Below are positions 5,859 through 32,000 of a stretch of 32,000 nt of DNA, piece after piece. The stretch is from positions 1,140,001-1,172,000 of the forward strand of contig CP065016.1 in the NCBI GenBank assembly GCA_016700375.1, written 5' to 3'. Made by a program: the position numbers and the translations under genes. Within the stretch, counting starts at the first letter, position 1, and every line of letters begins with the position of its first letter. The stretch is from Candidatus Saccharimonadota bacterium. GTDB lineage: Bacteria > Patescibacteriota > Saccharimonadia > Saccharimonadales > UBA4665. The notes beneath the pieces were generated by a model. The model saw nothing but the letters and a program-made list of their open reading frames with translations. It had not been told where the DNA came from and made no database searches.

Positions 5859-6535
5859 GCGACCTCGCTCAGTTTGTAGCCAAACCCGCGAACCGTGTGG
5901 ATAAGGGGTTTGGATTTGAACGGCTTATCAACTTTATTGCGCAGGTAACCTATGTAGGCTTCGACAGTGTTGGGCAAAATGTCTGCGTCAAAATCCCAGA
6001 CGTGATTGATGATGTTATCCTTACTCAAGACCCGTTCCTTGTTCCGCATAAGATATTCCAGTAGCGAATATTCGGTTTGCGAAAGGGCAATTGGCTTGCC
6101 TGCGCGGCGGACGTCATAACTCACGGTGTCGAGACTGAGATCACCGACCTGCAAATTTGTGCCACTTGTTTCGTGTGGGCGACGGGTAAGGGCGCGCAGG
6201 CGAGCTAGGAGCTCCTCAAATGAAAATGGCTTTACGAGGTAGTCGTCTGCACCGGCGTTGAGTCCAGCTACGCGGTCGCGGACCTGGCCTTTTGCGGTGA
6301 GCATAATGACGGGGGTTTTGACGCCCTTGCTGCGCAGTTTTTCGCATATTTCGAGCCCGTCCATACCGCCAGGGAGCATACGGTCAAGGATAATAACGTC
6401 GTAGTCGTCGCCAAGTGCGGCCGCCAAACCATCGGCACCGTCGTGACAGACCTCCACGGTTGAGTGTTCTTGCTCAAGCCCCAGTTTGATTGCGCGGGCG
6501 ATTTTGGGTTCGTCTTCTATAAGGAGTAGTTTCAT
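5855..6535 (-). CDS. OmpR/PhoB-family response regulator (receiver + winged-helix)
   Basis: Receiver signature MKLLLIEDEP...DVIILDRMLPGGMDG...LTAK. The C-terminal winged helix ends in TVRGFGYKL. Confidence 0.92.
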   Translation of the reverse strand: MKLLLIEDEPKIARAIKLGLEQEHSTVEVCHDGADGLAAALGDDYDVIILDRMLPGGMDGLEICEKLRSKGVKTPVIMLTAKGQVRDRVAGLNAGADDYLVKPFSFEELLARLRALTRRPHETSGTNLQVGDLSLDTVSYDVRRAGKPIALSQTEYSLLEYLMRNKERVLSKDNIINHVWDFDADILPNTVEAYIGYLRNKVDKPFKSKPLIHTVRGFGYKLSEVA

Positions 6536-6652
6536 ATGCTTTAGTCTGATACCTTTCCCTGAATTATACCTGAGAACACTCTGACTGGCATTGTGTAATG
6601 TGTGCGTTCTTATGAACGGAGCGAAAATATTCTCCTCAGCGCTGTTATCCCC

Positions 6653-6690
6653 GTCCTGAGCCTGTCATTCCCGCGCAGGCGGGAATCCAT
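6653..6690. repeat. GC-rich palindromic repeat (GTCATTCCCGCGCAGGCGGGAATCC type)
   Basis: Hairpin attcccgc-gcag-gcgggaat, preceded by gtcctgagc. It belongs to the same family as 27059-27084. Confidence 0.65.
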
Positions 6691-6957
6691 GCGCTTATAC
6701 AACCGTCTGTGCATTCACTAAACCTCACAGCCTCACTAACCCTCTCAATTCCTGCAGGCTCCCGCACCTGCCAAGCGGCTCATTTTGTACGGACAAAATG
6801 AGAGTAAACCGCCGGGGAGAATGCAAACGACCGGCTTACTTGCCCATGACTGCTTGCTTGTTTGGCTTGTGCAGAACTCACTGCACTTTGTTTCGTTCAA
6901 ACAGCTTCCGCGCGCAAGCAACCAAGCAGCCATGGGCAAATCAGTCGTTATGCAGCT

Positions 6958-7044
6958 ACGTTCCGTAGCCTCGGAACTTCTACCATGAAAGCATAGCTTC
7001 CAGGTGAAGATTCCCTTGCGACCCGCCACAGGCGGCTCTCACCC
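6958..7044. ncRNA. Conserved structured block, copy A (unknown RNA or DNA element; strand unresolved)
   Basis: About 87 nt align without gaps to 23295-23380, with roughly 60 identical positions by hand alignment. The block has two conserved hairpins, one with a compensatory pair change. It sits inside a ~650-nt ORF-free, hairpin-rich tract. Confidence 0.3.
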
Positions 7045-7214
7045 GGTTTCCCAAGAATCACCCCTTACTGCATCAAGAAAAGTACTCACCGTAGACCTCT
7101 CTGGCATAACCGTATCATGCGCTACTGTAAACTAGCGGCCTGAGACTGCGCCTTGAACGTTGGTTGCTGGGCGTTTGGCATTTGCTCATTGAAAATTGAC
7201 TCAAAATTGTAGAC

Positions 7215-7263
7215 TGAAAACGAAATTACAAACACCCCGGGTGAAACTACCAAGGGTGTTTGT
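7215..7263 (-). terminator. Rho-independent terminator of the 7280-7834 gene
   Basis: On the minus strand, ACAAACACCC...GGGTGTTTGT forms a 10-bp stem followed by AATTTCGTTTTC, 17 nt after the stop codon. Confidence 0.6.
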
Positions 7264-7279
7264 GGCGGATGCGGTGAAA

Positions 7280-7834
7280 TTACTGGTTGACTTTCGTGTT
7301 GGCATTTTGCGAAGAATCACCTCGTTTGTGGTCGCCACGTGGTCCACCGGGGCCTCCCGGGCCGCCGTGACCGCGCCCGCCGCCAAAGACGAGGTAGCGG
7401 TAGTCGGTCGATATGCCGTTGTCGCTAAACCACTTATCGAGAGCGGTGCGTTCAGCATCCATAGCTGCTTTTCGCTCGGCGTCGGTTTTGCTATCCATGC
7501 TGGCGCGGTTGGCCTCACGGGTTTTTTGCAGTTCGGCACGCTTGGCAGTGATGGCATCGGCTTGCGCTTGGGTAAGCTTGCCGTCTTTCACCAGAGTAGC
7601 GAGTTCAGTTTTCACTTCTGCTTCACGCTGGGCTTTCATTTCGGCGCGGTTGGCGTCAAACACTGACTGCACATCACTTTCTTTCAGGTTAAATTTCTTC
7701 GCAATGGCGCTGACGAGGCCCGACATAGGGTGGGAGCCATTGTTTTGCGTGGCGGCGCTTGCCATACCGAGTCCGGTGAGTCCGGTGACGGCCACCATAG
7801 CAGCGACGCCTGCGGTTACTAACGATTTCTTCAT
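7280..7834 (-). CDS. Secreted helical protein with an LTxxQ-like motif and a Gly/Pro-rich tail (hypothetical)
   Basis: Signal peptide MKKSLVTAGVAAMVAVTGLTGLGMASA. The body is rich in charged and Ala residues and contains GKLTQAQADAI. The C-terminus is GGGRGHGGPGGPGGPRG. AAGGAG lies 7 nt before the ATG at 7834, so I prefer that start to 7840. Confidence 0.7.
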   Translation of the reverse strand: MKKSLVTAGVAAMVAVTGLTGLGMASAATQNNGSHPMSGLVSAIAKKFNLKESDVQSVFDANRAEMKAQREAEVKTELATLVKDGKLTQAQADAITAKRAELQKTREANRASMDSKTDAERKAAMDAERTALDKWFSDNGISTDYRYLVFGGGRGHGGPGGPGGPRGDHKRGDSSQNANTKVNQ

Positions 7835-7969
7835 GGGCATTCTCCTTTACGGTTGATATGTGTTGCAACTGCCGTATGATACCCATGTTTCATGAGAGCT
7901 TCCTGAGACACTCACTGCTTGAGGTTATGGTTATGCAGTGCTACGATGAATGTAAGGAGATTCTTTGCG

Positions 7970-9394
7970 ATGGGCCAAGAAGACGCCAAAAACAAACACA
8001 TCGTTATCATTGGCGCCGGAACTACCGGCATAATGGTTGCAAATAAGCTGGTGAAGTCTGGCCACCATGTAACGGTTATTGACCCGGCTAAAACACATTA
8101 CTATCAGCCCGGCTTTCTGTTTGTCCCGTTTGGGCAGTACCAGTTGAACCAGCTGAGAAAGCCACTTGTTCGCCTGCTCCGAAAAAGGGTTAATCACCTT
8201 CGAGCCGTGGTGCAAAGCCTGCAGCCTGCCGAGAAAACACTGCAACTCGACTCGGGTGAGTGTGTTCGCTACGATGTTTTGGTTATAGCCACGGGTACAC
8301 AAACAGACCCAACCATGACGGAAGGGCTTGTGGGTGAGGGCTGGCGCAAAGACATTCACGATTACTACACTCCCGATGGTGCCGAGGCGCTACGCCAGGC
8401 TCTTCAGAAGTTTCAGGGTGGCAACCTGGTTGTGCAGATTATGGAAATGCCTATCAAATGCCCAGTCGCGCCCCTGGAGTTCACCTTCTTGGCAGATGAT
8501 TACTTCAAGCGCCGTAAGATGCGCGAGAAAGTAAAGTTAACATACGTAACGCCGCTTCCCGGGGCTTTCACCAAGCCAGTCGCCGCTGCCAAGCTTAGCC
8601 ACATGCTCTCAGACCGTAGCGTCGAAGTGGTAACAGATTTTCTTACCGAAAAGGTGGACCAAGCAGCCAAAAAAGTCGTGTGTTACGATGGCCGCGAAGT
8701 GCCGTATGACCTGCTTGTTTGCGTGCCTATGAACGTTGGTGCGAAGTTTTTGCAAGGCAATGAGCTCGTGAATGATGTGGAGTTTGTGGAAGTAAATCAC
8801 CACAGCCTACAGTCTACTAAGTACCCACATATTTTTGCTATAGGCGACGCCGCTGATGTACCAACAAGTAAGGCGGGGTCGGTCGGGCACTTCGAGGCTC
8901 ACACACTCCGGCGAAACATCGACCACTTTTTGGCTGGTCGCCCAGTGGAAGAAACATTTGATGGCCACAGTAATTGCTTTGTAGAATGTGGCGGTGGTAA
9001 GGCGCTGCTGCTTGATTTTAACTACGACACGCAGCCATACGAAGGTACCTTCCCGTTTGCAGGCATTGGCCCGATGAAGCTGCTTAACCCCAGCCGGTTG
9101 AACCACTGGGGGAAACTGGCTTTTCGCTGGATCTACTGGCACATGCTTTTGCCTGGCCGCAGGATTCCGTTTATCCCTGAACAAATGAGTTTGAAAGGGA
9201 AGAATATTCCAGCCGATACTAGAGTATCAGAGAGTTATGAGACAAGAGACATGAGTCAAGATGTACCGGCGCAATCCCAGGTGAAACCACCAGAGGAAAA
9301 TGAACCATCCCAGGTGGAACAACCACAAGTTTCTAGTGTGCCAAATGAACAACCAAATCAACTAAATCAACCGAAGGAGGGTGGTCGTGAATAA
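7970..9394 (+). CDS. Sulfide:quinone-oxidoreductase-like NAD(P)/FAD-dependent oxidoreductase with a Gln/Pro/Glu-rich C-terminal tail
   Basis: Rossmann motif HIVIIGAGTTG, Cys motifs PIKCPVAPLEF and HSNCFVECGGG, and FAIGDAADVPTSKAGS. AAGGAG lies 8 nt upstream of the ATG at 7970. The last ~60 aa are low-complexity. Confidence 0.8.
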   Translation: MGQEDAKNKHIVIIGAGTTGIMVANKLVKSGHHVTVIDPAKTHYYQPGFLFVPFGQYQLNQLRKPLVRLLRKRVNHLRAVVQSLQPAEKTLQLDSGECVRYDVLVIATGTQTDPTMTEGLVGEGWRKDIHDYYTPDGAEALRQALQKFQGGNLVVQIMEMPIKCPVAPLEFTFLADDYFKRRKMREKVKLTYVTPLPGAFTKPVAAAKLSHMLSDRSVEVVTDFLTEKVDQAAKKVVCYDGREVPYDLLVCVPMNVGAKFLQGNELVNDVEFVEVNHHSLQSTKYPHIFAIGDAADVPTSKAGSVGHFEAHTLRRNIDHFLAGRPVEETFDGHSNCFVECGGGKALLLDFNYDTQPYEGTFPFAGIGPMKLLNPSRLNHWGKLAFRWIYWHMLLPGRRIPFIPEQMSLKGKNIPADTRVSESYETRDMSQDVPAQSQVKPPEENEPSQVEQPQVSSVPNEQPNQLNQPKEGGRE

Positions 9395-9698
9395 AACCAT
9401 TGCTGGCCAAGAAGTCGATGTCGACGTAGAAGGCTACATGACGAACAAAGATGCCTGGAACGGCGAAATTGCCACGGCAATTGCTGCGGAACTGGGCATA
9501 CATGAACTTTCGCAAAAGCACTGGGATGTGCTGAACTGGCTCCGTGAACAGGTTGCGCAAGGGGTTGAACTCAACATTCGCAAAGTTGGTAGTTCCGGAA
9601 TTGTCGACATAAAGGAGTTCTACCAGCTGTTTCCCGGCGGCCCACTAAAAAATGCCAGCAAAATTGCCGGATTACATAAACCAACAAGCTGTCTGTAG
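9387..9698 (+). CDS. TusE/DsrC-family sulfur-relay protein (single C-terminal Cys type)
   Basis: VDVEGYM...WDVLNWLRE...LFPGGPLKNASKIAGLHKPTSCL parallels the E. coli TusE architecture and its ...AGLPKP..C. end. The likely GTG start at 9387 follows GAAGGAGG and overlaps the upstream stop (GTGAATAA). The ORF-track start is 9381. Confidence 0.85.
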   Translation: MNKTIAGQEVDVDVEGYMTNKDAWNGEIATAIAAELGIHELSQKHWDVLNWLREQVAQGVELNIRKVGSSGIVDIKEFYQLFPGGPLKNASKIAGLHKPTSCL

Positions 9699-9706
9699 GA
9701 GGCACT

Positions 9707-10279
9707 ATGTCAGAACAACACCCGCACAAAACTGAACACACTGGCCACGAAATGTGTCATGTCTGCAACCAATGCAAAGACTGTCATGCCTGCCGCTGCG
9801 AAACGCAGCAGGGCCCAGCACTGAAAAAAATGATGATTATTGTGAGCAAGGCAGGTATAGACAGCGTGTACGCCGCGCTCATCCTGGCGAACGGCGCTCG
9901 CAGCGAAGGCATAGAGTGCGACATGTTCTTTACGTTCTTTGGCCTCGACGCCATCACCAAAAAACGCATGGAGCACTTAAAGGTTGCTATGAGTGGTAAC
10001 CCAGGTATGCATATGCCGGAAATTGCCGGGGTCGTACCTGGCATGGAGACCTTTGCAACACACATGATGCAAAAGCGCATGGCCGAGCTTGATATACCGG
10101 GCGTAAGCGAATTCCTCGACATTATCAAGGCGGCTGGCGGGCACGTGTATGCCTGCAAGCTTGCCATGGAAATGTTTAAACTAGAACAAAGCGACCTGTG
10201 GGATGACACGGACGGCGTGCTTACCGTCGGCCAGTTTTACGAACGCTATGTGCCAGGTAGCCAAATCATCTTTATCTAG
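9707..10279 (+). CDS. DsrE/DsrF-like (DrsE_2-type) protein with a Cys/His-rich N-terminal extension
   Basis: Core MMIIVSKAGIDSVYAALILANGA...CDMFFTFFGLD...YACKLAMEMF is typical of DsrE-family proteins. The N-terminal 36 aa are HPHKTEHTGHEMCHVCNQCKDCHACRC. AGGAGG lies 5 nt upstream. Confidence 0.8.
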   Translation: MSEQHPHKTEHTGHEMCHVCNQCKDCHACRCETQQGPALKKMMIIVSKAGIDSVYAALILANGARSEGIECDMFFTFFGLDAITKKRMEHLKVAMSGNPGMHMPEIAGVVPGMETFATHMMQKRMAELDIPGVSEFLDIIKAAGGHVYACKLAMEMFKLEQSDLWDDTDGVLTVGQFYERYVPGSQIIFI

Positions 10280-11984: not shown

Positions 11985-12746
11985 TTATGGACGGAGCGTG
12001 CCACCAAAGACCTGCCACGCCAAGAGCGATTTGGCCACAAGGCTCAAAATGATGTAGGCGCGTTCGCCGTAGAGGTAATCGCGCCATTTACCAACCTGCT
12101 TGTACTGCAGCACCATATTCAGCGCAAAGCAGCTGAAAAATACGAAAATAGAGACAGATATCCAGTACACAAACGTTGGGGCGGCACTCCCATTGGCTGC
12201 TCCGAGCCACATATAAAATGCCACGACTACCCAAGGGATGAGGCCAGCGAAGGTACCAAGGTTGAAGCTGAGCCAATTAGTCTTTTTGGTGGTTTGGTTG
12301 TGCACTTCCATGACGAGCCCGAGCAGGTTCATGACGGCGGTCAGGCTAAACATCATCAGCAGTGAACTGAAATCGTAGATACCCACTAACATGCCAATGG
12401 CGACCATCATGGTGCTGGCCGAAATGGCGTATTCGACCCAGCGTAGTTTGTTTATGCCGAGTTTGAGGTCGGCAGCATAGCGCCTGTTGTACACAGTGGC
12501 GATAGTAAAGTGGAAAAAGGCCGAGAGGAAAAAGAAGGCAGCAATCAGCCAGGGCAGGTCAACGTTAAAAAGCGTCGTTGTTGTCGGTTGGAGTGACTGG
12601 GTTGCTTTGTCGAACTCGAGGTAGTTACCGCTAACGGGCACAGGCAATGACTTGCTGAGTAAGAGGACCGCCACGGCTTGCGCCAGATGCAAGCAGCCGG
12701 CGATGATATTGAGTTTCTTGAGTGACCGCGCGGTTATTTTCTTCAT
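11985..12746 (-). CDS. Heliorhodopsin
   Basis: 253 aa, 7 TM. It has IAGCLHLAQ, FFHFTI, RWVEYAISAS (counterion Glu) and ERAYIILSLVAKSLLAWQVFGGTL (retinal Lys). It is collinear with heliorhodopsin 48C12 as I recall that sequence. Confidence 0.88.
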   Translation of the reverse strand: MKKITARSLKKLNIIAGCLHLAQAVAVLLLSKSLPVPVSGNYLEFDKATQSLQPTTTTLFNVDLPWLIAAFFFLSAFFHFTIATVYNRRYAADLKLGINKLRWVEYAISASTMMVAIGMLVGIYDFSSLLMMFSLTAVMNLLGLVMEVHNQTTKKTNWLSFNLGTFAGLIPWVVVAFYMWLGAANGSAAPTFVYWISVSIFVFFSCFALNMVLQYKQVGKWRDYLYGERAYIILSLVAKSLLAWQVFGGTLRP

Positions 12747-16327: not shown

Positions 16328-16414
16328 CGTGAAAGCTCCGACCTTTCACGCTTATGCTTGCATGACTGTATCTGTTTGGCTTATATTCATGCGTGAAAGG
16401 TCGGAGCTTTCACG
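16328..16414. repeat. REP pair (two 23-bp hairpin repeats in opposite orientation) upstream of the RAYT gene
   Basis: cgtgaaagctccgacctttcacg (16328-16350) and its reverse complement cgtgaaaggtcggagctttcacg (16392-16414). Confidence 0.85.
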
Positions 16415-16416
16415 CT

Positions 16417-17055
16417 ATGGCAAGTCGAAATACGGTTCGGGAATTTACAGAAAACGCCTACTACCATGTGTACAACAGGGGTGTTGAGAAGCGGGTAATT
16501 TTCCTTGACGAGCAAGACTACACCGTGTTTCTTGGCCTCCTCAAAAAATATCTGGTAGGCGAAAACTACAATAAAGCAAATCGGCACAAAGCCGTGACCA
16601 TTGGCTCTGAAGTTCAGTTGCTGGCATATTGCTTGATGCCAAATCATTTTCACCTGTTGTTATATCAGGTTAGCCAGGAGGGTGTCGCGAAGCTCATGCG
16701 TCGGGTGACAACTGGCTACGTTATGTATTTCAATAGTCGTTATGCTCGCGTAGGCGGCCTGTTTCAGGGGCGATACAAAGCATCACACATCAATGCAGGC
16801 GCATACCTGCACCATATATCCCGTTATATCCACCTCAATCCGGAGCAGCACCAGACGTGGCCTTATTCGAGCCTCAAGTACTATCAGCGTACACAAGCAC
16901 CACCAGAGTGGCTTCATACCGAAAAGATCATTGACTTATTCCATTCGCGTCGCGAATACCTGGATTTTGTAGACGAGTACCAAGACTCAATGCGAGAACT
17001 TTCTTTGCTCAAATGGCAGCTGGCCAATAACCCAGATGATCCTGACACCCCATGA
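16417..17055 (+). CDS. REP-associated tyrosine transposase (RAYT, IS200/Y1-transposase-like)
   Basis: HUH motif LMPNHFHLLL, a downstream Tyr region (ISRYIHLNP), and flanking by REP pairs. I prefer ATG 16417 because the ORF-track GTG start lies inside a REP. Confidence 0.85.
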   Translation: MASRNTVREFTENAYYHVYNRGVEKRVIFLDEQDYTVFLGLLKKYLVGENYNKANRHKAVTIGSEVQLLAYCLMPNHFHLLLYQVSQEGVAKLMRRVTTGYVMYFNSRYARVGGLFQGRYKASHINAGAYLHHISRYIHLNPEQHQTWPYSSLKYYQRTQAPPEWLHTEKIIDLFHSRREYLDFVDEYQDSMRELSLLKWQLANNPDDPDTP

Positions 17056-17072
17056 AACTACCTCGGTAGCGC

Positions 17073-17138
17073 CGTGAAAGCTCCGACCTTTCACGCTCGA
17101 ACCGCGAACCATAACCGTGAAAGGTCGGAGCTTTCACG
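17073..17138. repeat. REP pair downstream of the RAYT gene
   Basis: The same 23-mer occurs at 17073-17095 (forward) and 17116-17138 (reverse complement). Confidence 0.85.
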
Positions 17139-17157
17139 GTTATTGGAGAGGTGGAGG

Positions 17158-17529: not shown

Positions 17530-17570
17530 ACTTTGTATTATACAATACGGCCAAAATTATTGCCGAACGA

Positions 17571-18737
17571 CCTGACCCACACTCACTTTTTTCCTCCTCC
17601 CCGTACATGAGCCACCGGTATCGGTGGTAGCAGCGGCGTACGTAGTAGCCGTTGCATATACTCCCAGGCTTGCTTGAACCAGCTCAGTCGTTTCTTGGGA
17701 TGAATCTTCTGCTGTTGTTTTGGTAGTACTTTGACCGCATAGCGCCACAGTAACCACCAACCGAGGAAGACAAACAGCAGCAAGTTACGGATGACTTGTG
17801 GTTTTCTGACTCGTTGCCACTCCAATCGTTGCAACCACTTCACATCCTTGAAGGCTTCTTCAATTTCGAACCTTTCTGCGTAACGGTTCAGGACTTGTCT
17901 TCTGGTGAGGGCCTCTGTTCCCTCGCTCGGTAGGTTGGTCAACAAAAACCAGGGCTCCGGATCCTTCATGTTCGGATTGTAATCCGAACGAATAAGTCGG
18001 AGCTTATGTGTATGGTACGTGATGGGTAATTCCTCATGACTAATGTCATGGATGGGTTCCTTCCACCAGCTGGGATCCCAGGGAAGCTGAACGAGCTTGT
18101 CGCTCTTGGTACGAGCGATGAAGTGCACATCGTACAGGGCAAACAAAGTGAACAGTTTGTCACTAGCAAACCAGCGATCCATGACAAGTACCAGTTGCAG
18201 ATCTGGTGCATTAACTTGAAGGAAATGGAACAGTCCCTCCAGCGCCACTAGAAGTGGCGCAATGAGAGCTGCTTCGCTGAGGTTCACCTGACACCAAATG
18301 GGTATAGCTCGACCCTTGCGATGCGACACCGCCAAGATGGCGATACAAAACGGGCCGAATTGAGAGTGGTCCAGAGAGCAGTACCACCGACCAGTATGCG
18401 AAGCTAACGCTTCGCTAACCAACAATCGCTGCAAGCGCACTGGCAGTTCCTCGTCAGTAACTAACCGACGAATGCGGTTTTCTCCAGTCCAGCGATTCAG
18501 CCCAAGCGTTCGACCAGCAGCGTTGAGCGAACAGAACTCCTGAAGGGAAAACTGTTCAACTCCGAGGAAGAAGCGACGAGCCTTAGCTTTTGGGATGTAT
18601 GTCGCACGCAGCCGCTTTACAGCAGTTGCCATCTTTTGTAGTGTAGTCATTAGAAAACGACCTTTCTGTTTTAGCTTTTGTAACCAAAACTGTAGGGTCG
18701 TTTTTGTTATGTGTCAAAAAAGTGAGTGTGGGTCAGG
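17571..18737 (-). mobile_element. Intact IS4-family insertion sequence (1167 bp)
   Basis: 22-bp terminal inverted repeats: CCTGACCCACACTCACTTTTTT at 17571-17592 and its complement at 18716-18737. Flanked by direct CCGAACGA (17563-17570 and 18738-18745). Single DDE ORF. Confidence 0.85.
17583..18650 (-). CDS. IS4-family DDE transposase
   Basis: 355 aa. YAERFEIEEAFKDVK fits the IS4 Y-(2)-R-(3)-E-(6)-K signature exactly. Upstream Asp candidates are LDHS and VMDRWF. Confidence 0.88.
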   Translation of the reverse strand: MTTLQKMATAVKRLRATYIPKAKARRFFLGVEQFSLQEFCSLNAAGRTLGLNRWTGENRIRRLVTDEELPVRLQRLLVSEALASHTGRWYCSLDHSQFGPFCIAILAVSHRKGRAIPIWCQVNLSEAALIAPLLVALEGLFHFLQVNAPDLQLVLVMDRWFASDKLFTLFALYDVHFIARTKSDKLVQLPWDPSWWKEPIHDISHEELPITYHTHKLRLIRSDYNPNMKDPEPWFLLTNLPSEGTEALTRRQVLNRYAERFEIEEAFKDVKWLQRLEWQRVRKPQVIRNLLLFVFLGWWLLWRYAVKVLPKQQQKIHPKKRLSWFKQAWEYMQRLLRTPLLPPIPVAHVRGGGKK

Positions 18738-18745
18738 CCGAACGA

Positions 18746-18895
18746 CCTGACCCACACTCACTTTTTGAATGTCATCCTGAGCGAAGCCGAAAGATCCCGT
18801 CTGATGTACGCCTAACGAGATCCCTCCACGGAGTTTACCCCGTACTTGATACGGGGGTCGGGATGACACAGGAGTAAAAAGTGAGTGTGGGTCAG
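18746..18895. mobile_element. 150-bp MITE sharing the IS4-element termini
   Basis: Starts with cctgacccacactcactttttg and ends with aaaaagtgagtgtgggtcag. The interior is a TGTCATCCTGAGCGAAG...GGGATGACA palindrome (18770-18868). It is followed by a third CCGAACGA (18896-18903). Confidence 0.7.
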
Positions 18896-20958: not shown

Positions 20959-23127
20959 ATGCAGCCTGTCCTAATATCACTACTTGCTATCATTCCAGTA
21001 AACCTCGCGCTCGGGGCTTTGATACTATTGCGCGATCGTAAGTTACTTTCCAATATATTTTTCAGTGCATCTATATTATTTCTTTGTATTTGGGCTTTAG
21101 GTGATGCCCTTTTACTTTATGGGTCTAGTGATTTATCAATCGGGCTCGGGTCAAGACTATTCTATATTGGGCCTATGTTCACGGCGCTGTTTCTAGTGCT
21201 GTTTTCGTTGAACTTTCATTCCCAAAAACAGGTTACAATTGGTTTATTTGGAGCAGTTCTTTCTGTTGTAAGCATCGGCTTGTCCGTCGTTATTGCACTT
21301 CAGCAAACAATACTCGTCGCCGATATACATATAGCGGGTTATGGGAGGAATGTCGTTGTCGTTAACCCTAAGGGGTGGCTGGTATATACTGTCTACTTCA
21401 CTACCTATTTTGCCATCTCGTATCTCGCGCTAATTAAAAGAGCACGCAGATCTGGAGTGGTACAGAAAGTACAGCTTGAATATGTCTTTGCTGGAGTATT
21501 TCTAACGAGCATTTTTGCTTCCATTACGAATCTCGGCCTACCGTTAAGAGGGCAGACAGATTATATTTGGCTCGGGCCGCTTTTTACAATGCTCTACGTT
21601 GGCATAACGGCTATGGCTATATTACGCCACAAGCTGTTTGATATTCGCGGCTTTGTGTTGCGTGCTGGTGTTTATTCACTTACTGCTTTAATACTGGCGG
21701 TGCTATATGTTGCGCCGATTATATTATTGATGTTGGTAGTATTTGATTTGAAATTTCATATAAAAGATTTTATTATAGCTGTAATCATAGGAACCATATC
21801 GTCAACAAATTACAACAGACTGCGACAATGGTTTGATAGGACCACTAATAAAATTTTTTTCAGGGACGCATATGATCCGACGAAACTAATTGCGGAGCTA
21901 AACAAGGCTCTTGTGGCTACAATCGATCTACAGCAGTTATTAAGAGATACAACAAATCTTCTCGAGCACCATGTGCATCCTGAGTACTGTTGTTTTGTGC
22001 TCAAAGGCGTAGATAAAACAAGCCTGAGGGTCGTAGGTGATCCTTCTATTGGATCGAGGGATTTTAGCGCAGAGCGGCTAGAGCGTGCTCTGCGGCAGAT
22101 TACCGAAAATATTGTCATAACATCGTTGTTGACTGAAGAAGACTCTGGGCTCAAAACAGTTCTTCACGAGTCTGATATTTTTGCCGTAGCACGGTTGACT
22201 TCTGGACGAGGCACAAAAAAGGAGTTAATCGGCTATATGTTGCTGGGACAGCGCAAGAGCGGTAAGGGTTATGATCTGCAAGACGCACAAGTTCTAGGGG
22301 CCGTATCAAATACTTTGGTAATTGCAATGCAGAACGCACTTCATTTTGAGGAGATACAACACTTTAACACAACCCTTCGTTCCCAGGTTGAAGAGCAGAC
22401 GCGGAAGTATCGGACAGCGAACGAAAAGCTCAAAAAGCTTGATGAGACAAAAGATGAGTTCATTTCTATGGCAAGTCACCAATTGCGTACGCCCCTGACG
22501 AGCGTAAAGGGCTACCTGAGTATGGTGCTGGAGGGGGATGCTGGAGCGCTGAAGCCGCAGCAAGAAGAGCTGCTGAAGCAGTCCTACATGAGTAGTCAGC
22601 GCATGGTGAATCTTATAGCCGATCTACTGAATCTTTCACGCATTAACACGGGCAAATTTGTCATAGATGCTCAGCCTACCGACCTTCGCATGGTGATAGA
22701 CCAGGAAGTTGCACAGCTGAAAGAATCTGCCAACGCAAAAAATATCACTCTTCAGTGGGTCACGCCTACAACGTTTAGCCTGCTACCGCTGGACGAAGGC
22801 AAAATTCATCAGGTAGTAATGAACTTTGTCGACAATGCACTGTACTACACTCCCGAGGGCGGTACGATAACACTAAGCCTGACAGAGTCTGCAAATGCGG
22901 TCGAATTTAAGGTCACCGACAGCGGTATAGGGGTGCCGCGTGAACTACAGCGGCATCTTTTTTCCAAGTTCTACCGCGCCGACAACGCGCGCCGTATGCG
23001 CCCAGATGGTACGGGGCTGGGGCTATATATGGCTAAAAAAGTCGTGATTGCGCAGGGCGGCTCAATAGTGTTTGAAAGTGAAGAAGGCAAGGGAAGCACT
23101 TTTGGGTTCCGCTTCGCGAAAAGGTAG
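20959..23127 (+). CDS. Histidine kinase with an N-terminal multi-TM (7TM-type) sensor, a central GAF-like region, HisKA and HATPase_c
   Basis: About 8 hydrophobic helices in the first ~290 aa. H-box ASHQLRTPLTS, N-box FVDNALYYTPEGG, G1 DSGIGVP, G2 GTGLGLYM. I prefer ATG 20959 to the TTG at 20920. Confidence 0.9.
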   Translation: MQPVLISLLAIIPVNLALGALILLRDRKLLSNIFFSASILFLCIWALGDALLLYGSSDLSIGLGSRLFYIGPMFTALFLVLFSLNFHSQKQVTIGLFGAVLSVVSIGLSVVIALQQTILVADIHIAGYGRNVVVVNPKGWLVYTVYFTTYFAISYLALIKRARRSGVVQKVQLEYVFAGVFLTSIFASITNLGLPLRGQTDYIWLGPLFTMLYVGITAMAILRHKLFDIRGFVLRAGVYSLTALILAVLYVAPIILLMLVVFDLKFHIKDFIIAVIIGTISSTNYNRLRQWFDRTTNKIFFRDAYDPTKLIAELNKALVATIDLQQLLRDTTNLLEHHVHPEYCCFVLKGVDKTSLRVVGDPSIGSRDFSAERLERALRQITENIVITSLLTEEDSGLKTVLHESDIFAVARLTSGRGTKKELIGYMLLGQRKSGKGYDLQDAQVLGAVSNTLVIAMQNALHFEEIQHFNTTLRSQVEEQTRKYRTANEKLKKLDETKDEFISMASHQLRTPLTSVKGYLSMVLEGDAGALKPQQEELLKQSYMSSQRMVNLIADLLNLSRINTGKFVIDAQPTDLRMVIDQEVAQLKESANAKNITLQWVTPTTFSLLPLDEGKIHQVVMNFVDNALYYTPEGGTITLSLTESANAVEFKVTDSGIGVPRELQRHLFSKFYRADNARRMRPDGTGLGLYMAKKVVIAQGGSIVFESEEGKGSTFGFRFAKR

Positions 23128-23209
23128 GCGTCACAATTTCACTCTCGCCTCAGGCACGAACGCGTCGCAATCATGCCGGTTCGCCAGAGAGGCACTACAC
23201 CCACATCCC

Positions 23210-23269
23210 TGTCATCTTGAGCGAAGCCCGGCTATCCTTAGGATGGTCGGACGAAGTCGAAAGATCTCC
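23210..23269. repeat. Member of the TGTCATCTTGAGCGAAG palindromic repeat family
   Basis: tgtcatcttgagcgaagcccggctatccttaggatggtcggacgaagtcgaaagatctcc. It shares its core with 403-475 and 18770-18868. Confidence 0.5.
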
Positions 23270-23294
23270 TTCTTACGGATGCAGGCTCTCGCTC

Positions 23295-23380
23295 ACGTTC
23301 CGCGAACCCGGAACTTCACGGTGTCAGGCATAGCTTGACCCGGAAGGTTCCCTTGCGATTCGCCACCGGCGACTCTCACC
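23295..23380. ncRNA. Conserved structured block, copy B (paralog of 6958-7044)
   Basis: Shares ACGTTCCG-N6-CGGAACTTC, GCATAGCTT and GGTTCCCTTGCGA-hairpin-CTCTCACC with copy A. The surrounding ~500 nt contain perfect 8-12 bp hairpins and no credible ORF. Confidence 0.3.
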
Positions 23381-24425
23381 TGCAGGCGACCAGGACCTTT
23401 TGCTGCCAAAAGGTCCTGGACCTAAAACTAGGCCAGAGGCTCCAACTCTTAGTGTCATAGTTGTTCGTTTTAACAACCGACGCAAGGACTCGTCACTCCG
23501 GCATTGCCACTGGCAATGCACCTCGTTCCTCAAACAACTTGCGTCGCCTGACGGGAGTTGTCAAACCCGACAACATGCCAGCCAGGAGTATTCGCATGGC
23601 CGTCTTAGCTGTATCGCTGACGCGATGATTTCTAAACGGCCTGCGGCCGCATTCATTTCTCGTTAATTGTATTGTCTAATTCGTTGGTGTTTGATTGTTT
23701 TTTGGTAACTTGGGCGTTGATAGTCTGTTGTTAGTTGTTGCATCCAACTTGCACAAGCGTCAAAACGCTTGTGCTATGTATTGACTTTTTTGCAATTTAG
23801 TTCCAATATGTATACATCCTTTGTTGTAAGGACGCACACATATAATTCCATAACCGGACATTCACAGGTCGGAAATCGAGTAAGTAAGGCAGCAGCCTGA
23901 AGGAGGCTGTACTATTTGCACGTTTGCGAACCTATATGATCCTGACTCTCCGCCAGCAAACGATCATTCACAATTTACAAATCAATCAGTCTAGAATGTA
24001 AGTAGCTAAGGACACCCTTGCTCACATCGCTGTTTTAGGGTTAACTAAAGAGAGTTATCCTTTTGCCCTACAACTGGACTTTTATGTCGTTCGCCTGTTG
24101 CTACTGAACCAAATCAAAGCGGATGCAAGATTATGGCATTAGACGCAATATAATTTACATTTAGTTGCTACGAGACACCAAGGCGTAGCGCTGGAGGGTG
24201 ATATGTGCATTAGTTTGAATGACGAAGCGACATGCGTCTAGCTAGTAATATATGGCCAGTATTTATCTCTGCCAGTACGTTTAGCAGGGCTTTAATAGTC
24301 GGGTAGCATCTCAACGCCTGTAAGCCCCTTATTACTCGAAGCATTCTGCACCCTCCTAATCGGCAGGCGTCCATTGCAAGCCCTGGCTCCCATCACATGA
24401 TTATTGCATAAGCAAATTTAAGTTA

Positions 24426-24441
24426 ATAAAAATTTGACAAT
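24426..24441. repeat. Left copy of a 16-bp direct repeat flanking the IS481-like element
   Basis: ATAAAAATTTGACAAT, identical to 25484-25499. Confidence 0.85.
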
Positions 24442-25483
24442 TGTACTAAGCCCCAATTGTCCAGACACTTAGACATGAGTTACTGTTCCTTTCCATACCG
24501 CTTCATAGTGCTCCATTGGCGGCAGGTTATTGCAGCTGCTATGCCGTCTCACGCGATTGTATTCGTTCTGCCATAGTTTCATTGCTTCGTTGAACGCGAC
24601 GACATCAAGCTCGGTCGTTTTGGTGACGTGGTAAAACTCTTCTTCGTCTGTCCGATGGCTCCGCTCGACAAAACCATTATGTTGGGGTGTACCCGGTCGG
24701 GATAGCTTGTGCTCGATGCCCCGGTCGAGCAGGTACTGCGTGAACGGGTGGATACGTCTGAGCTCATGGTCACGCTTTTTGTTACCGCCAGTAGACAAAT
24801 TGGTGAACGTGGAGTGGTTATCTGTCTGGACACATTCCACCGTAATACCAATCGATTCGTAGAACGCCAGGGCTTCACGCACAAAGGCGATTGAGTTGCT
24901 ATTCGACAAGCCATCCTTGACCGCCAGGTACCGGATCTTGCTGACAATGTCTATCGCTGTAAACTGCTGTCTCCGACTCCGTCGTTTATCTTCGTCCGGA
25001 CGAACCGGTGCAGCCTTAGTGTCAATCTGCACTCGGTAGCCTGGATAGGGCGCGTAGAACGGTCTCGTTGGCTTTTTCTTTGGATGTTTCTGGTGCTTTA
25101 CGAGGTCGGCTCGTTCAATAATGCCGCGGACAGCTTTCTCGCCAATGGATATTCCAGAGTCACTCATCTCATCGACGATTCGCTTCGGGCCATAGGATAG
25201 TCCCAGCCTGATTTGTAGCACCAAATCCTCAATGTCTTCATTCGTCTGCCAGGATACCCTGCCTTTTGGTCCAGGCTTCTGCGGGAACAGTTCGATCCGC
25301 CAAGCATAGATAGTATCCCGATGGATCCCAAACATTCGGGCAGCGATTGCCGCGCCTTTCGCATCGGCTTCAGTTAACACTCGTTTACGATAGGCAATAA
25401 CTTGATGTCGGGTTAGGTTCTTCTTCATACACATATGCCCCAATTCTACACACCGAGGTGTCGGAGGGATTGGGGCTTAGTAT
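24442..25483 (-). mobile_element. IS481-family-like insertion sequence (~1.04 kb)
   Basis: Ends TGTACTAAGCCCCAAT... and ...ATTGGGGCTTAGTAT form imperfect inverted repeats that also share TCC-GACAC further in. Single rve-type ORF. 16-bp flanking direct repeat. Confidence 0.8.
24469..25443 (-). CDS. IS481/IS3-like DDE (rve) transposase/integrase
   Basis: N-terminal HTH (FGIHRDTIYAWR). The rve core has RVQIDTK, VQTDNHSTF, NGFVERSHRTDEEEF and YNRVRRHSS. Confidence 0.88.
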   Translation of the reverse strand: MGHMCMKKNLTRHQVIAYRKRVLTEADAKGAAIAARMFGIHRDTIYAWRIELFPQKPGPKGRVSWQTNEDIEDLVLQIRLGLSYGPKRIVDEMSDSGISIGEKAVRGIIERADLVKHQKHPKKKPTRPFYAPYPGYRVQIDTKAAPVRPDEDKRRSRRQQFTAIDIVSKIRYLAVKDGLSNSNSIAFVREALAFYESIGITVECVQTDNHSTFTNLSTGGNKKRDHELRRIHPFTQYLLDRGIEHKLSRPGTPQHNGFVERSHRTDEEEFYHVTKTTELDVVAFNEAMKLWQNEYNRVRRHSSCNNLPPMEHYEAVWKGTVTHV

Positions 25484-25589: not shown

Positions 25590-26855
25590 ATGAGAAATAT
25601 GAACAAAGGGCTAGTGGCAGTCGGCACGGCGGTTGCCATAGGAGTCGGTGGTTGGGGTATATCACGTCAAGCAGGCGCGGAGGCTGATTTAACTGTCGAC
25701 GCGGTTGCTCAGTTAGATTTGACTATTGACCAAGGAGTTGATTGTGTAAAGCTTGTGCAGGAACATGGCCAGCCAATGTATGACGGTCAAGGCCCCAGCA
25801 CGATTGAATCGGGTGGAAAAACGTATGTTCGCTTCCGAGCTGGTGCGGGAGAAGACGGAACTCGAAGGCTCTATCAAGATGGTCCCAACGTTCCACTGCA
25901 AAACAGAACAACAGAAGGTATGCAGGCCAGCATATGCCAAGACCCGCTTGAGGCAGGGATATTCGTTGCAGGTATGCATGACGAGCGACTAAAAATAGGC
26001 GATAAAACGCCGGGGCAAGTAAACGCTGCGTGGATACCAGAAGAACTTCGCACCATGGATGGGGTAAATGATTGGGCGGCTAAAGCGATGACAGATAATG
26101 TCAAAACGCACAACGAGGCTCAAGAGGTAATGGCGCGTGCGGCTGCTATGTTTGGTAAGCTTCACCCAAATGGAGTAACTAAAGACACCACATTGGCAAA
26201 CGCGCATCTTCCTAATGCAGAAGGCGTAAAAGAAGGTTCCTTGCCTGAAGTTGCTTGGAATCATGAACAATATACGGGCTACTTTATAAGTGCAAAATAT
26301 GTTCTAAAGACCGGTAAATGCGCCCTAAACGTCGGTTTCAATGTGGGTAAAGATAAAGTAGATGGCGGCGACCAACGCTTTGCTATACTCCCATGTAAGG
26401 AAGAAACTAAGGCAACGAATCCATCGCCATCAAGCACAAGCACCCCGTCAGAATCTACATCACCAAGCACAAGCACCCCGTCAGAATCTACATCACCAAG
26501 CACAAGCGCATGCAACAACGCCTCAAAACCGCAAGACCCAGAACACACCTATACGCCTGTTATGAGAAATGGCTGCGTCGTAAGATGGGTTATTCAGGGA
26601 TCATCGCTGAATAGTGGCCCTCAGAATCAGGGGATTCAGACAGATCGTGGTGACCAGGGCGGCGCTCAGCAACAAGAGGGTGTAGTCGACACGACACCCG
26701 CCTCGCAGCCAGAGGTTCCCGTGGCTCCTGCTGCTCCCCCTGCGCCTACGAACGGTGGCTACAACGGCGGCTCAACTACACAGCCTGGACAGACGGGAAC
26801 TCCTAACCCCGGTCCGTCACAGCCCCCTGTTCAAGGTGACCCGGGCGGGTTCTAG
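25590..26855 (+). CDS. Secreted protein with a Ser/Thr/Pro repeat linker and a Pro/Gln/Gly-rich C-terminus (hypothetical)
   Basis: Signal peptide MRNMNKGLVAVGTAVAIGVGGWGISRQAGA. An internal STSTPSESTSP repeat. No LPxTG motif. I recognise no homolog. Confidence 0.75.
   Translation: MRNMNKGLVAVGTAVAIGVGGWGISRQAGAEADLTVDAVAQLDLTIDQGVDCVKLVQEHGQPMYDGQGPSTIESGGKTYVRFRAGAGEDGTRRLYQDGPNVPLQNRTTEGMQASICQDPLEAGIFVAGMHDERLKIGDKTPGQVNAAWIPEELRTMDGVNDWAAKAMTDNVKTHNEAQEVMARAAAMFGKLHPNGVTKDTTLANAHLPNAEGVKEGSLPEVAWNHEQYTGYFISAKYVLKTGKCALNVGFNVGKDKVDGGDQRFAILPCKEETKATNPSPSSTSTPSESTSPSTSTPSESTSPSTSACNNASKPQDPEHTYTPVMRNGCVVRWVIQGSSLNSGPQNQGIQTDRGDQGGAQQQEGVVDTTPASQPEVPVAPAAPPAPTNGGYNGGSTTQPGQTGTPNPGPSQPPVQGDPGGF
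26431..26507 (+). repeat. Perfect 33-bp in-frame tandem repeat (2.3 copies)
   Basis: caagcacaagcaccccgtcagaatctacatcac occurs at 26431-26463 and 26464-26496, followed by an 11-bp partial copy. Confidence 0.9.
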
Positions 26856-27050: not shown

Positions 27051-27058
27051 ATAGTCTT

Positions 27059-27084
27059 GTCATTCCCGCTTGCGCGGGAATGAC
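27059..27084. repeat. GC-rich palindromic repeat (GTCATTCCCGC-TTGC-GCGGGAATGAC)
   Basis: Perfect 11-bp stem. Same family as 6664-6688. Confidence 0.7.
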
Positions 27085-27128
27085 AACGATGTCAATACGA
27101 AAGTGCTTATGGATATTGTATAATAATA

Positions 27129-31691: not shown

Positions 31692-31766
31692 GGCCTCATC
31701 TTCTAACGGTTAGGAAATCGGGTTTTCATCCCGGCAATCGGAGTTCGATTCTCCGTGAGGTCACCA
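31692..31766 (+). tRNA. tRNA-Glu (anticodon TTC), CCA encoded
   Basis: GGCCTCATCTTCTAACGGTTAGGAAATCGGGTTTTCATCCCGGCAATCGGAGTTCGATTCTCCGTGAGGTCACCA folds as a cloverleaf with anticodon loop TTTTCAT. Confidence 0.92.
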
Positions 31767-31767
31767 A

Positions 31768-31800
31768 GTAAAAACCTCAGCCAAAGGCTGGGGTTTTTAC
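31768..31800 (+). terminator. Hairpin terminator after tRNA-Glu
   Basis: AAAAACCTCAGCC-aaa-GGCTGGGGTTTTT. Confidence 0.7.
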
Positions 31801-31918
31801 TTGGTTTCTTCAGGCTGAAGCGAACTCCGCAGAATGAGCGAAGCGAATGGGGAGTTCGATAATCGAGGACGCGCGCAGGAGCTAAAGCTCCGAGCACGTC
31901 GCAAGAATATAACAGAGT

Positions 31919-31937
31919 ATTCTCCGTGAGGTCACCA
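31919..31937 (+). repeat. 19-bp perfect direct repeat of the tRNA-Glu 3' end
   Basis: ATTCTCCGTGAGGTCACCA equals 31748-31766. A further T-arm fragment, GGAGTTCGAT, lies about 60 nt upstream at ~31851-31860. Confidence 0.85.
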
Positions 31938-31941
31938 CAAG

Positions 31942-31971
31942 AGACTCATCGGCATTTGATGGGTCTTTTTG
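31942..31971 (+). terminator. Second hairpin terminator after the duplicated tRNA 3' end
   Basis: AGACTCATC-ggcattt-GATGGGTCT followed by TTTTT. Confidence 0.6.
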
Positions 31972-32000
31972 ATGGTCGCAATGCTAACACGAGTAATTTT

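Follow-up and report, generated by a model that had tools for sequence, protein, structure and literature searches.

The window analysed here is a stretch of 32,000 nucleotides (nt) from the genome of a Candidatus Saccharimonadota bacterium (contig CP065016.1). Its response regulator is 86–87% identical to Candidatus Saccharimonadales or Saccharibacteria proteins, and it also encodes heliorhodopsin, Mur ligases, PRPP synthetase and DUF11/PKD surface proteins. On its minus strand the window carries two copies of a block, named block A, which an earlier reading of the letters alone (the sequence-only reading) had picked out upstream of the regulator gene and again at 23.3 kilobases (kb). Analysis of further copies, about 40 of which were found, points to block A being a structured RNA element of ~88 nt, located mostly beside transfer RNA (tRNA) genes and probably mobile.

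Copy 1 and the tract that carries it

Copy 1 is located between the start of the response-regulator gene and the terminator hairpin of an upstream gene for a protein of 186 amino acids (aa) (Table 1). The description of this stretch as poor in open reading frames (ORFs) and dense in hairpins holds, as two mechanical ORFs are all that it contains and the longer of them has no Pfam match. Folding of the whole tract is far more stable than that of shuffled sequences (z = -5.9). The ~100-nt long hairpin and the family palindrome are both present, and the perfect 10-bp hairpin is present as well, except that its position had been given as 6780–6803 and is off by one base. The long hairpin may be likened to the inverted-duplication scars found beside the element in tRNA loci (see below). 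The palindrome takes the form TGTCATTCCCGC-N-GCGGGAATGACA, which occurs twice in the window (6663–6686 and 27058–27085). A related palindrome, ATCCCTGCATTCGCTGGGAT, follows the element at ~6640–6665 of L020, a Saccharimonadales assembled genome.

The tract had also been regarded as a single RNA unit of about 650 nt tied to the regulator, and this part of the sequence-only reading has to be abandoned. Relatives with the same regulator and kinase operon have merely 98–300 nt upstream of the regulator. The junction is uninterrupted in L071, L072–L074 and L064, whose regulator proteins are 97%, 88% and 86% identical to that of the window, respectively, and has the form TTTGTAATT^(T)CTCAGGTATAAT (L071, L073 and L064 read ...TTTGTAATT(T)CTCAGGTATAATTCAG...ATG). 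In the global alignment with the relatives the gap falls at 7224/6577, with the terminator of the 186-aa gene on one side and the regulator's -10 box on the other. The promoter-site sequence TCTCAGGTATAATTCAG is common to L064–L074 and the window, and the ends of the 648-nt insert show no terminal inverted or direct repeats. Because the relatives have an intact junction without these 648 nt, the comparison indicates that the tract is a recent, lineage-specific, non-coding insertion and no leader of the regulator gene.

As a highly structured stretch that precedes the regulator gene on its strand, the tract could suggest a long 5′ leader or riboswitch for the response-regulator/histidine-kinase operon. 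However, the closest relatives with the same operon are wholly without the tract and have kept the promoter, and the predicted -10 box separates the tract from the gene. Furthermore, a convergent gene has its 3′ end towards copy 2, and the other copies adjoin tRNAs or unrelated genes and share no conserved position in a 5′ untranslated region. We consider the probability of a leader to be close to negligible. It is likely that copy 1 came as part of the 648-nt insertion and does not regulate the response-regulator gene.

Table 1. Positions in the window of both copies of block A and of the features around them.
Feature	Position	Strand	Remarks
Copy 1 of the ~88-nt structured RNA element	6954–7042	minus	model R1, 92 bits, E 2e-19
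Helices of copy 1	P1 7020–7038; P2 (long) 6973–7014; P4 6954–6970	minus	single-sequence minimum-energy fold agrees
Copy 2 of the element	23291–23379	minus	model R1, 87 bits
Helices of copy 2	P1 23357–23375; P2 23310–23351; P4 23291–23307	minus	
Conserved structured non-coding region, ~440 nt, with copy 2 as 3′ domain	23279–23725	minus	comparison with L035
Non-coding insertion carrying copy 1, 648 nt	6577–7224	minus	comparison with relatives
Conserved 3′ flank TGCATAACGACTGATTTG of copy-1-type unit	6937–6953	minus	also after the element in L020 and L027
Imperfect ~100-nt fold-back	6841–6938		-55 kcal/mol, z = -6.4; starts 15 nt after copy 1
Perfect 10-bp hairpin	6779–6802		z = -4.4
REP-like (repetitive extragenic palindrome) palindrome TGTCATTCCCGCGCAGGCGGGAAT	6663–6686		second copy at 27058–27085 (repeat families D15 and I8)
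Promoter-like site of response-regulator gene	6563–6591	minus	downstream of the insertion; conserved in relatives
Terminator hairpin of upstream 186-aa gene	7229–7262	minus	marks left border of the insertion; conserved in L064
Mechanical ORFs, 94 aa and 67 aa	regulator start 6535 (minus) to hairpin 7229–7262		sole ORFs of this stretch

Fold, covariation and novelty of block A

The recurrence of the block at 23.3 kb was confirmed. Positions 6991–7043 and 23328–23380 are 79% identical over 53 nt without a gap, and the alignment of the two window copies spans GGTGAGAG to CGGAACGT. Within the window the anchors TCGCAAGGGAA and GAAGTTCCG-N6-CGGAACGT are restricted to these two sites, the chance expectation for the latter being 0.03. 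Further copies were collected in two steps. When one genome of each GTDB species was scanned with a sequence pattern, 25 loci matched, roughly as many as chance alone would give, but six Saccharibacteria genomes among them hold the complete ~88-nt motif and not the pattern alone. A looser three-anchor pattern then gave about 27 more true instances in JGI metagenomes. These patterns fixed GTGAGAG, TCGCAAG and CSGAASGT, the invariance of which is therefore partly by construction, while that of the helices is not. Alignment of 32 distinct copies with MAFFT, in which structure was not used, served to build the covariance model R1, which finds exactly two copies in the window (E about 1e-19), also with its filters off.

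The element (5′-UGAGAG...GUGAC-3′) comprises three helices, namely the hairpin P1, a long bulged P2 with a variable tip and the hairpin P4, which are joined by the conserved strands GUGA, GCAAG and GG. GUGA is followed by P1 (GAGNNGCC-NNU-GGCNNNUC), GCAAG by the long P2 (GGAA.CUUC, the variable hairpin and GAAG-UUCC) and GG by P4, which is capped by a GAA loop (GGUCGCG-GAA-CGUGACY). About 15 invariant unpaired nucleotides are present at the helix junctions. Minimum-energy folds of either single copy in the window also give P1, P2 and P4.

In the 32-copy alignment, standard pairs fill 93.2% of the pair cells versus 74% in shuffles, and double (compensatory) changes have occurred at 25 of the 32 pairs. 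The covariation score is 0.53 versus 0.19 for shuffles, none of 500 of which reached it, and pairing falls to 27–47% when the partner column is slid as a control. Pair 80–88 is G-U in 29 of the 32 copies and pair 76–92 in 13, and therefore the fold exists solely on the minus strand of the window. This pattern of substitutions argues that block A is a real structured RNA family with a conserved three-helix fold. Mutual information gave subfamily signal alone and no extra tertiary pairs. A C(GCAA)G mini-hairpin at the P1/P2 junction was rejected because its covariation is inconsistent in the alignment.

What the sequence-only reading had proposed for the block agrees in part with these data. A structured RNA on the minus strand is supported by the covariation and the G-U pairs, homologues exist and covary strongly, and the compensatory change of CCGCC/GGCGG to UCGCC/GGCGA falls in P1, with the purine-purine mismatch present. 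Two of its elements need correction. Although a GAAGUUCCG-N6-CGGAACGU hairpin is possible on paper, the conserved pairing is a different one: UUCC pairs with GGAA of AAGGGAA, and CGGAACG forms the tip of the separate hairpin P4. Similarly, AAGCUAUGC, which had been listed as a shared element, is merely the tip of the variable P2 hairpin and is found in one subfamily only.

Rfam 15 (4227 models) at gathering thresholds gives three tRNAs and nothing else in the window, and tRNAs alone in the six Saccharibacteria loci. At E<=10 there is no credible match over 6500–7300 and 23100–24500, in line with the earlier impression that no known RNA family fits, and none of the models for self-cleaving ribozymes (hammerhead, twister, pistol, hatchet, HDV-like and hairpin) appears at this threshold. 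To our knowledge, and judged against Rfam 15, the ~88-nt element has not been described and the family is new. All copies with a taxonomic label belong to Saccharibacteria (6/6 true matches among the GTDB species genomes), and searches of IMG/VR viral contigs and of phage and plasmid records returned no copy. The family is thus probably specific to Saccharibacteria.

Copy 2 forms the 3′ domain of a longer conserved region and faces the 3′ end of a convergent gene. Window positions 23725–23279 are 73% identical to positions 1361–1800 of L035, rising to 83% over the element, and there is no protein-level conservation between the copy-2 host region and L035. In this two-sequence alignment, 21 of 115 predicted pairs show compensatory changes. 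An orthologous copy of the element, again with compensatory changes, occupies the same place of the host RNA in L035. The 5′ 70 nt of the host RNA are A/C-rich, unstructured and conserved, and the 5′ start CAA(A)CGCCCA(A)G..ACCAACG is common to the hosts of copy 1 and copy 2. Rfam has no match to the ~440-nt region, which may be regarded as a large non-coding RNA candidate of its own. Within it, copy 2 is fixed as the 3′ domain, is vertically inherited and has its fold under selection. That copy 2 is conserved beyond its host RNA speaks for a role of the RNA itself rather than for pure selfishness.

Several covarying hairpins are visible in the ~440-nt region, for example CCAGGACCUUUUGGCAGCAAAAGGUCCUGG against CCAUCUUUCUUUGGCAGCAAAGAAAGAUGG. 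An IS481-family element with 25-nt inverted ends (24444–25482; transposase 24469–25443) sits 1.1 kb from copy 2, within a gene-free stretch of 1.3 kb.

Copies at tRNA genes and differences between genomes

About 35 of the about 40 copies adjoin an intact tRNA gene and lie inside a truncated duplicate of that same tRNA, with the element on the tRNA strand in 25 of 25 cases. The insertion points are in the D, anticodon, variable or T loop, and the tRNAs hit are those for Gln, Ser, Leu, Gly, Pro, Val, Glu, Lys and Arg. Two layouts are seen. In type A, a 5′ fragment of the tRNA is followed by the element, a short 3′ remnant, a spacer of 30–50 nt with a -10 box and the intact tRNA. In type B, the intact tRNA, a terminator, a spacer and a short 5′ remnant precede the element, after which come the tRNA 3′ fragment, complete to CCA, and another terminator. 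Every fragment comes with a -10 box or terminator of its own; usually the fragment retains the canonical resident promoter (TAnAAT-C-CCTCTGTTG...) and the intact gene uses the promoter of the spacer. The fragment resembles the intact tRNA precisely as far as position +1 or CCA, beyond which the flanks show no relationship.

Comparison of each fragment with the adjacent intact tRNA gene gave a junction rule (about 15 junctions), in which the element takes the place of two target nucleotides, turning X-NN-Y into X-[UGAGAG...GUGAC]-Y. The NN lost are GT, TT, TA, AG, CG and GC. X ends in G, which is all that the left flanks share, and Y usually begins with a pyrimidine able to pair with G76 of P4, so that the target has the form G^NN^Y. 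The truncated side often carries the neighbouring, uninterrupted tRNA sequence once more in inverted form, here called a fold-back scar, as in TCGAATCC-A-ATTCGAACCCC, CTAGTG-A-CACTAGTACCT and CCGAATGC with GCATTCGG. The spacer of L030 matches the reverse complement of tRNA positions 8–34 (z = 7). Some fragments contain two or three elements or their degenerate remains (L015, L033, L037, L040 and L064).

Three other views of these loci were rejected. The spacer is not a full inverted copy of the tRNA, as the fold-backs are partial and clear in about 9 of 20 loci, nor a copy of the upstream region of the tRNA made by tandem duplication, as the upstream regions are unrelated. The element is also not an intron whose removal restores the tRNA, since ARAGORN called a tRNA after excision in only 2 of 33 copies when 35 boundary combinations were tried for each.

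In interrupted tRNA copies, a short GGCC-containing expansion in or near the anticodon loop recurs on the right flank of the element (L008, L030, L034, L042, L045, L055 and L059). One example, CTTGCCAGGCCAAGG, is found in four tRNA-Gly fragments from different genomes, and fold-back copying accounts for the GGCC expansions only in part. In the window, the tRNA-Glu gene (31692–31766) and its terminator are followed, within 31767–31975, by the inverted T-arm copy CGAACTCCG, then by GGGGAGTTCGA-[59-nt insert]-ATTCTCCGTGAGGTCACCA and a second terminator. The 59-nt insert holds a GGAGC-UAAA-GCUCC hairpin and GUCGCAAG and obtains no score from the covariance model. This site is a type-B-like scar, the insert of which looks like the decayed 5′ half of an element or a different family.

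The sequence-only reading had allowed that the block might prove to be the edge of a degraded mobile element. This came out true in part, as block A is a repeated inserted module that sits mostly in tRNA fragments. Partial tRNA duplicates next to the intact gene are present in about 30 loci, as for the direct repeat of an attachment site, and it might be argued that the arrangements are scars of integrase-driven elements of which the 88-nt block is just the conserved end. The partial duplicates flanking a short insert by an intact tRNA indeed resemble classical attachment sites, and breakpoints fall in anticodon and T loops. However, the element interrupts the loop, standing between stem and loop residues and not beside an intact core site. 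Moreover, 5′ fragments that retain a resident promoter occur as often as 3′ fragments, the inserts at tRNA loci are only 150–250 nt long with no integrase nearby, and RNA-type covariation would be left unexplained. This explanation therefore seems highly improbable. Clustering of all ORFs revealed no recurring protein family within 4 kb of the copies.

Copies cluster by subfamily and sample and not by insertion site. In one sample the copies in the D loop of tRNA-Gly (L042) and the T loop of tRNA-Leu (L044) are 94% alike, while the Gly D-loop site is occupied by four subfamilies in four genomes. A type B insert is present at tRNA-Lys in L064 (complete genome CP064993.1), and the orthologous tRNA-Lys genes of the window and of L068 are without it. 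L064 contains a second unit of the element and a tRNA-Lys 3′ fragment, 3.5 kb off and on the opposite strand. These inverted units lie at 2780–2990 and 6250–6520, one beside tRNA-Lys and the other, which contains tandem degenerate copies, after a Fasciclin-domain gene. Recombination between the two units could invert the segment between them; with respect to the heliorhodopsin gene, tRNA-Lys is oriented one way in L064 and the other way in the window.

Three contigs of the same population match the window. A fourth, the strain variant L027, encodes a regulator protein identical to that of the window, has DNA that is 98.8% identical and matches the window from the regulator gene to 6954, the 3′ edge of the element, beyond which it is unrelated or highly diverged (L027 1–560) and has a different upstream gene. 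The switch point is a recombination or rearrangement breakpoint located exactly at the element. The element is reduced in L027 to a GTAG-TTCCGGGG remnant, and for this reason L027 was rejected as a clean empty site. L020 carries a copy-1-type unit elsewhere, between purD and glyA, consisting of about 35 nt of 5′ flank, the element and TGYATAACGACTGATTTG. Because the same unit is found there at another location and with P2 deleted, the copy-1-type unit is larger than 88 nt, switches context and decays. A tmRNA-like or tRNA-like nature of the copy-1 flank (GGGGUGAUUCU...) was rejected, as ARAGORN and Rfam were blank and the string is missing in L027. Exact-protein look-ups found no strain variants around copy 2 and tRNA-Glu.

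Some further features of the window are located apart from the two copies. A type III sulfide:quinone reductase, which matches the 'selenoprotein subtype' model at 553 bits, is clustered with a DsrC-like and a DsrE-like gene (7919–10279 and 11985–12746) with the inserted tract on one side and the genes for PRPP synthetase and heliorhodopsin on the other. The syntenic region of L064 lacks the cluster, which may be a second acquired segment. An insertion sequence with an IS4/IS701-like DDE transposase gene (17583–18650) is bounded by 20–30-nt repeats GCCGAACGACCTGACCCACACTCACTTTTT (17562–18895), and a 33-nt tandem duplication, 97% identical, is present at 26428–26493 within an ORF of 421 aa (25590–26855) with no function assigned.

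Proposed mobility, alternatives and known systems

Block A is geneless, has several copies in a genome and interrupts structured-RNA genes at exposed loops, mostly tRNA genes at G^NN^Y sites with loss of two target nucleotides. For these reasons, we favour the explanation that block A is a ~88-nt RNA family of Saccharibacteria that probably acts as a non-autonomous mobile structured-RNA module. In such a scheme, the fold on the sense strand, as RNA or single-stranded DNA, would be recognised by an enzyme encoded elsewhere. Insertion into an essential single-copy tRNA gene would survive only if repair or duplication left an intact copy alongside, which would explain why type A and type B loci combine a truncated duplicate and a fold-back scar with an intact tRNA that has a separate promoter or terminator. 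Along an RNA route, insertion into tRNA loops would be followed by reverse transcription. A route through single-stranded DNA would be possible on the tRNA sense strand as lagging-strand template, which this strand is in genes co-directional with replication.

Serine recombinases, which cut with a 2-nt stagger, are a candidate family worth testing as the partner of the element. In the relative L065 (5970–7713), the end of a large serine recombinase gene falls within or beside tRNA-Glu, a short way upstream of the regulator operon.

Several observations do not sit easily with mobility. Copy 2 and its L035 orthologue are vertically inherited and more conserved than their host RNA (83% vs 73%). 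No clean empty site was found for the 88-nt element alone, L027 having kept a remnant. Copies within one genome are mostly 78–94% alike, which places any movement outside the very recent past, and gene conversion could produce the same picture. The element has no linked transposase, integrase or reverse transcriptase, and it is without the terminal inverted repeats and target duplications typical of known DNA transposons. Lastly, even tRNA fragments of 17–25 nt have kept the exact sequence of the resident tRNA, a hint of selection on them.

It could be, then, that block A is not a parasite but a functional RNA domain, either a new small ribozyme that cleaves itself or ligates, or a protein-binding module. 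Fusion to tRNA 5′ or 3′ fragments would then be its purpose, yielding or stabilising chimeric RNAs that serve as guides, decoys or regulators of the neighbouring tRNA. The invariant unpaired nucleotides at the helix junctions, the conservation of copy 2 and its L035 orthologue beyond their host with compensatory changes, and the -10 box or terminator that each fragment possesses would all suit such a domain. So would the 17–25-nt fragments, which track lineage-specific changes of the local tRNA while their flanks are unrelated. However, the copy-1-type locus decays freely, with an internal deletion in L020 and a remnant in L027, and interrupted tRNA copies gather two or three insertions and degenerate scars. 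Different subfamilies occupy the same site in different genomes, and known ribozyme models are unmatched. On this evidence a functional domain of this kind appears rather unlikely.

The strand specificity of the structure, its tolerance of G-T wobble, its constant placement on the sense strand of tRNA genes and its insertion without target duplication are reminiscent of single-stranded-DNA transposons. In that case, block A would be a remnant of the IS200/IS605 or REP type, folded on the lagging-strand template and moved by a Y1 (HUH) transposase encoded elsewhere, and a REP-associated tyrosine transposase is in fact encoded in the window (16393–17055). However, this transposase is flanked by its own REP hairpins (family D2), which are unrelated to block A, and no Y1 gene recurs near the copies. 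The end hairpins P1 (GAGNNGCC-NNU-GGCNNNUC) and P4 (GGUCGCG-GAA-CGUGACC) are dissimilar, and the target is merely G^NN^Y with two nucleotides lost and no fixed motif of 4–5 nt. We regard such an origin as quite improbable. The hairpin repeats of the transposase gene (16328–17140) are 25 nt long and lie in pairs on both sides of it (CGTGAAAGCTCCGACCTTTCACG).

A bolder form of the mobile-module explanation, possible but at present doubtful, is that block A represents a new class of bacterial mobile element, in which an RNA of ~88 nt, possibly a ribozyme, inserts itself into exposed loops of tRNAs and further structured RNAs. Insertion would then take place at the level of RNA or a single strand and would be fixed in DNA only where an intact tRNA was regenerated. 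If true, such a self-inserting RNA would be a bacterial counterpart of mobile tRNA introns and retrozymes, the first in bacteria of the candidate phyla radiation. If the fold is catalytic or is a handle for an enzyme, it could reveal a new RNA-guided or RNA-mediated route of genome change. The combination of loop targeting, loss of two nucleotides, fold-back scars and a restored tRNA is unexplained by known pathways of bacterial transposition or introns. Block A could further explain how essential single-copy tRNA genes survive under attack in minimal genomes. It also accounts for puzzling tRNA pseudogenes and long non-coding gaps in Saccharibacteria assemblies. In any case, block A adds a well-supported structured RNA family to an ultra-small episymbiotic lineage, the non-coding RNA of which is almost unexplored.

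Among known systems, the transposing tRNA introns of Thermoproteales archaea, which have a bulge-helix-bulge and occupy non-canonical positions, are similar in that short related inserts are present at D-, anticodon-, variable- and T-loop positions of many tRNAs, which in both systems implies movement between tRNA genes. However, block A is bacterial and has its own conserved three-helix fold. No bulge-helix-bulge is evident at its junctions, where the UGAGAG 5′ end is not complementary to the 3′ end (the P4 strand), and its removal restores no tRNA in 31 of 33 cases. Its host copies are truncated, with one side of the tRNA missing and the intact gene alongside. Bacterial group I introns in tRNA anticodon loops are likewise structured RNAs in a tRNA loop on the sense strand. 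They differ from block A in being 200 nt or more in length as against 88 nt; the Rfam group I model is unmatched, and block A is not limited to the anticodon loop and leaves its host copy as no functional gene.

Miniature derivatives of IS200/IS605 and REP elements share with block A a strand-specific single-strand fold, the absence of target duplication and a non-autonomous nature, but block A has dissimilar end hairpins, no fixed target tetranucleotide, a loss of target nucleotides and no linked transposase. It is also unlike a miniature inverted-repeat transposable element (MITE), as its ends, GTGAGAG... and ...GTGACC, do not form inverted repeats and insertion removes two target nucleotides instead of duplicating any. 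Eukaryotic tRNA-derived short interspersed nuclear elements (SINEs) resemble it in combining a tRNA-derived head with a shared structured module that could be recognised by a trans-acting enzyme. However, the tRNA part of block A loci is a fragment of the local neighbouring gene, outside the moving unit, and the host is bacterial; unlike for SINEs, we know of no reverse transcriptase partner.

Block A may also be compared with the small structured repeats interspersed in bacterial genomes (ERIC, BOX, Correia, bcr1 and Rickettsia palindromic elements), which are likewise geneless, multi-copy, lineage-restricted repeats of ~100 nt that are co-transcribed with their neighbours and can lie inside RNA genes. 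Block A differs from these repeats in having neither terminal inverted repeats nor target duplication, in a multi-helix fold kept by extensive covariation and in its strong preference for tRNA loops, with loss of two target nucleotides and fold-back scars.

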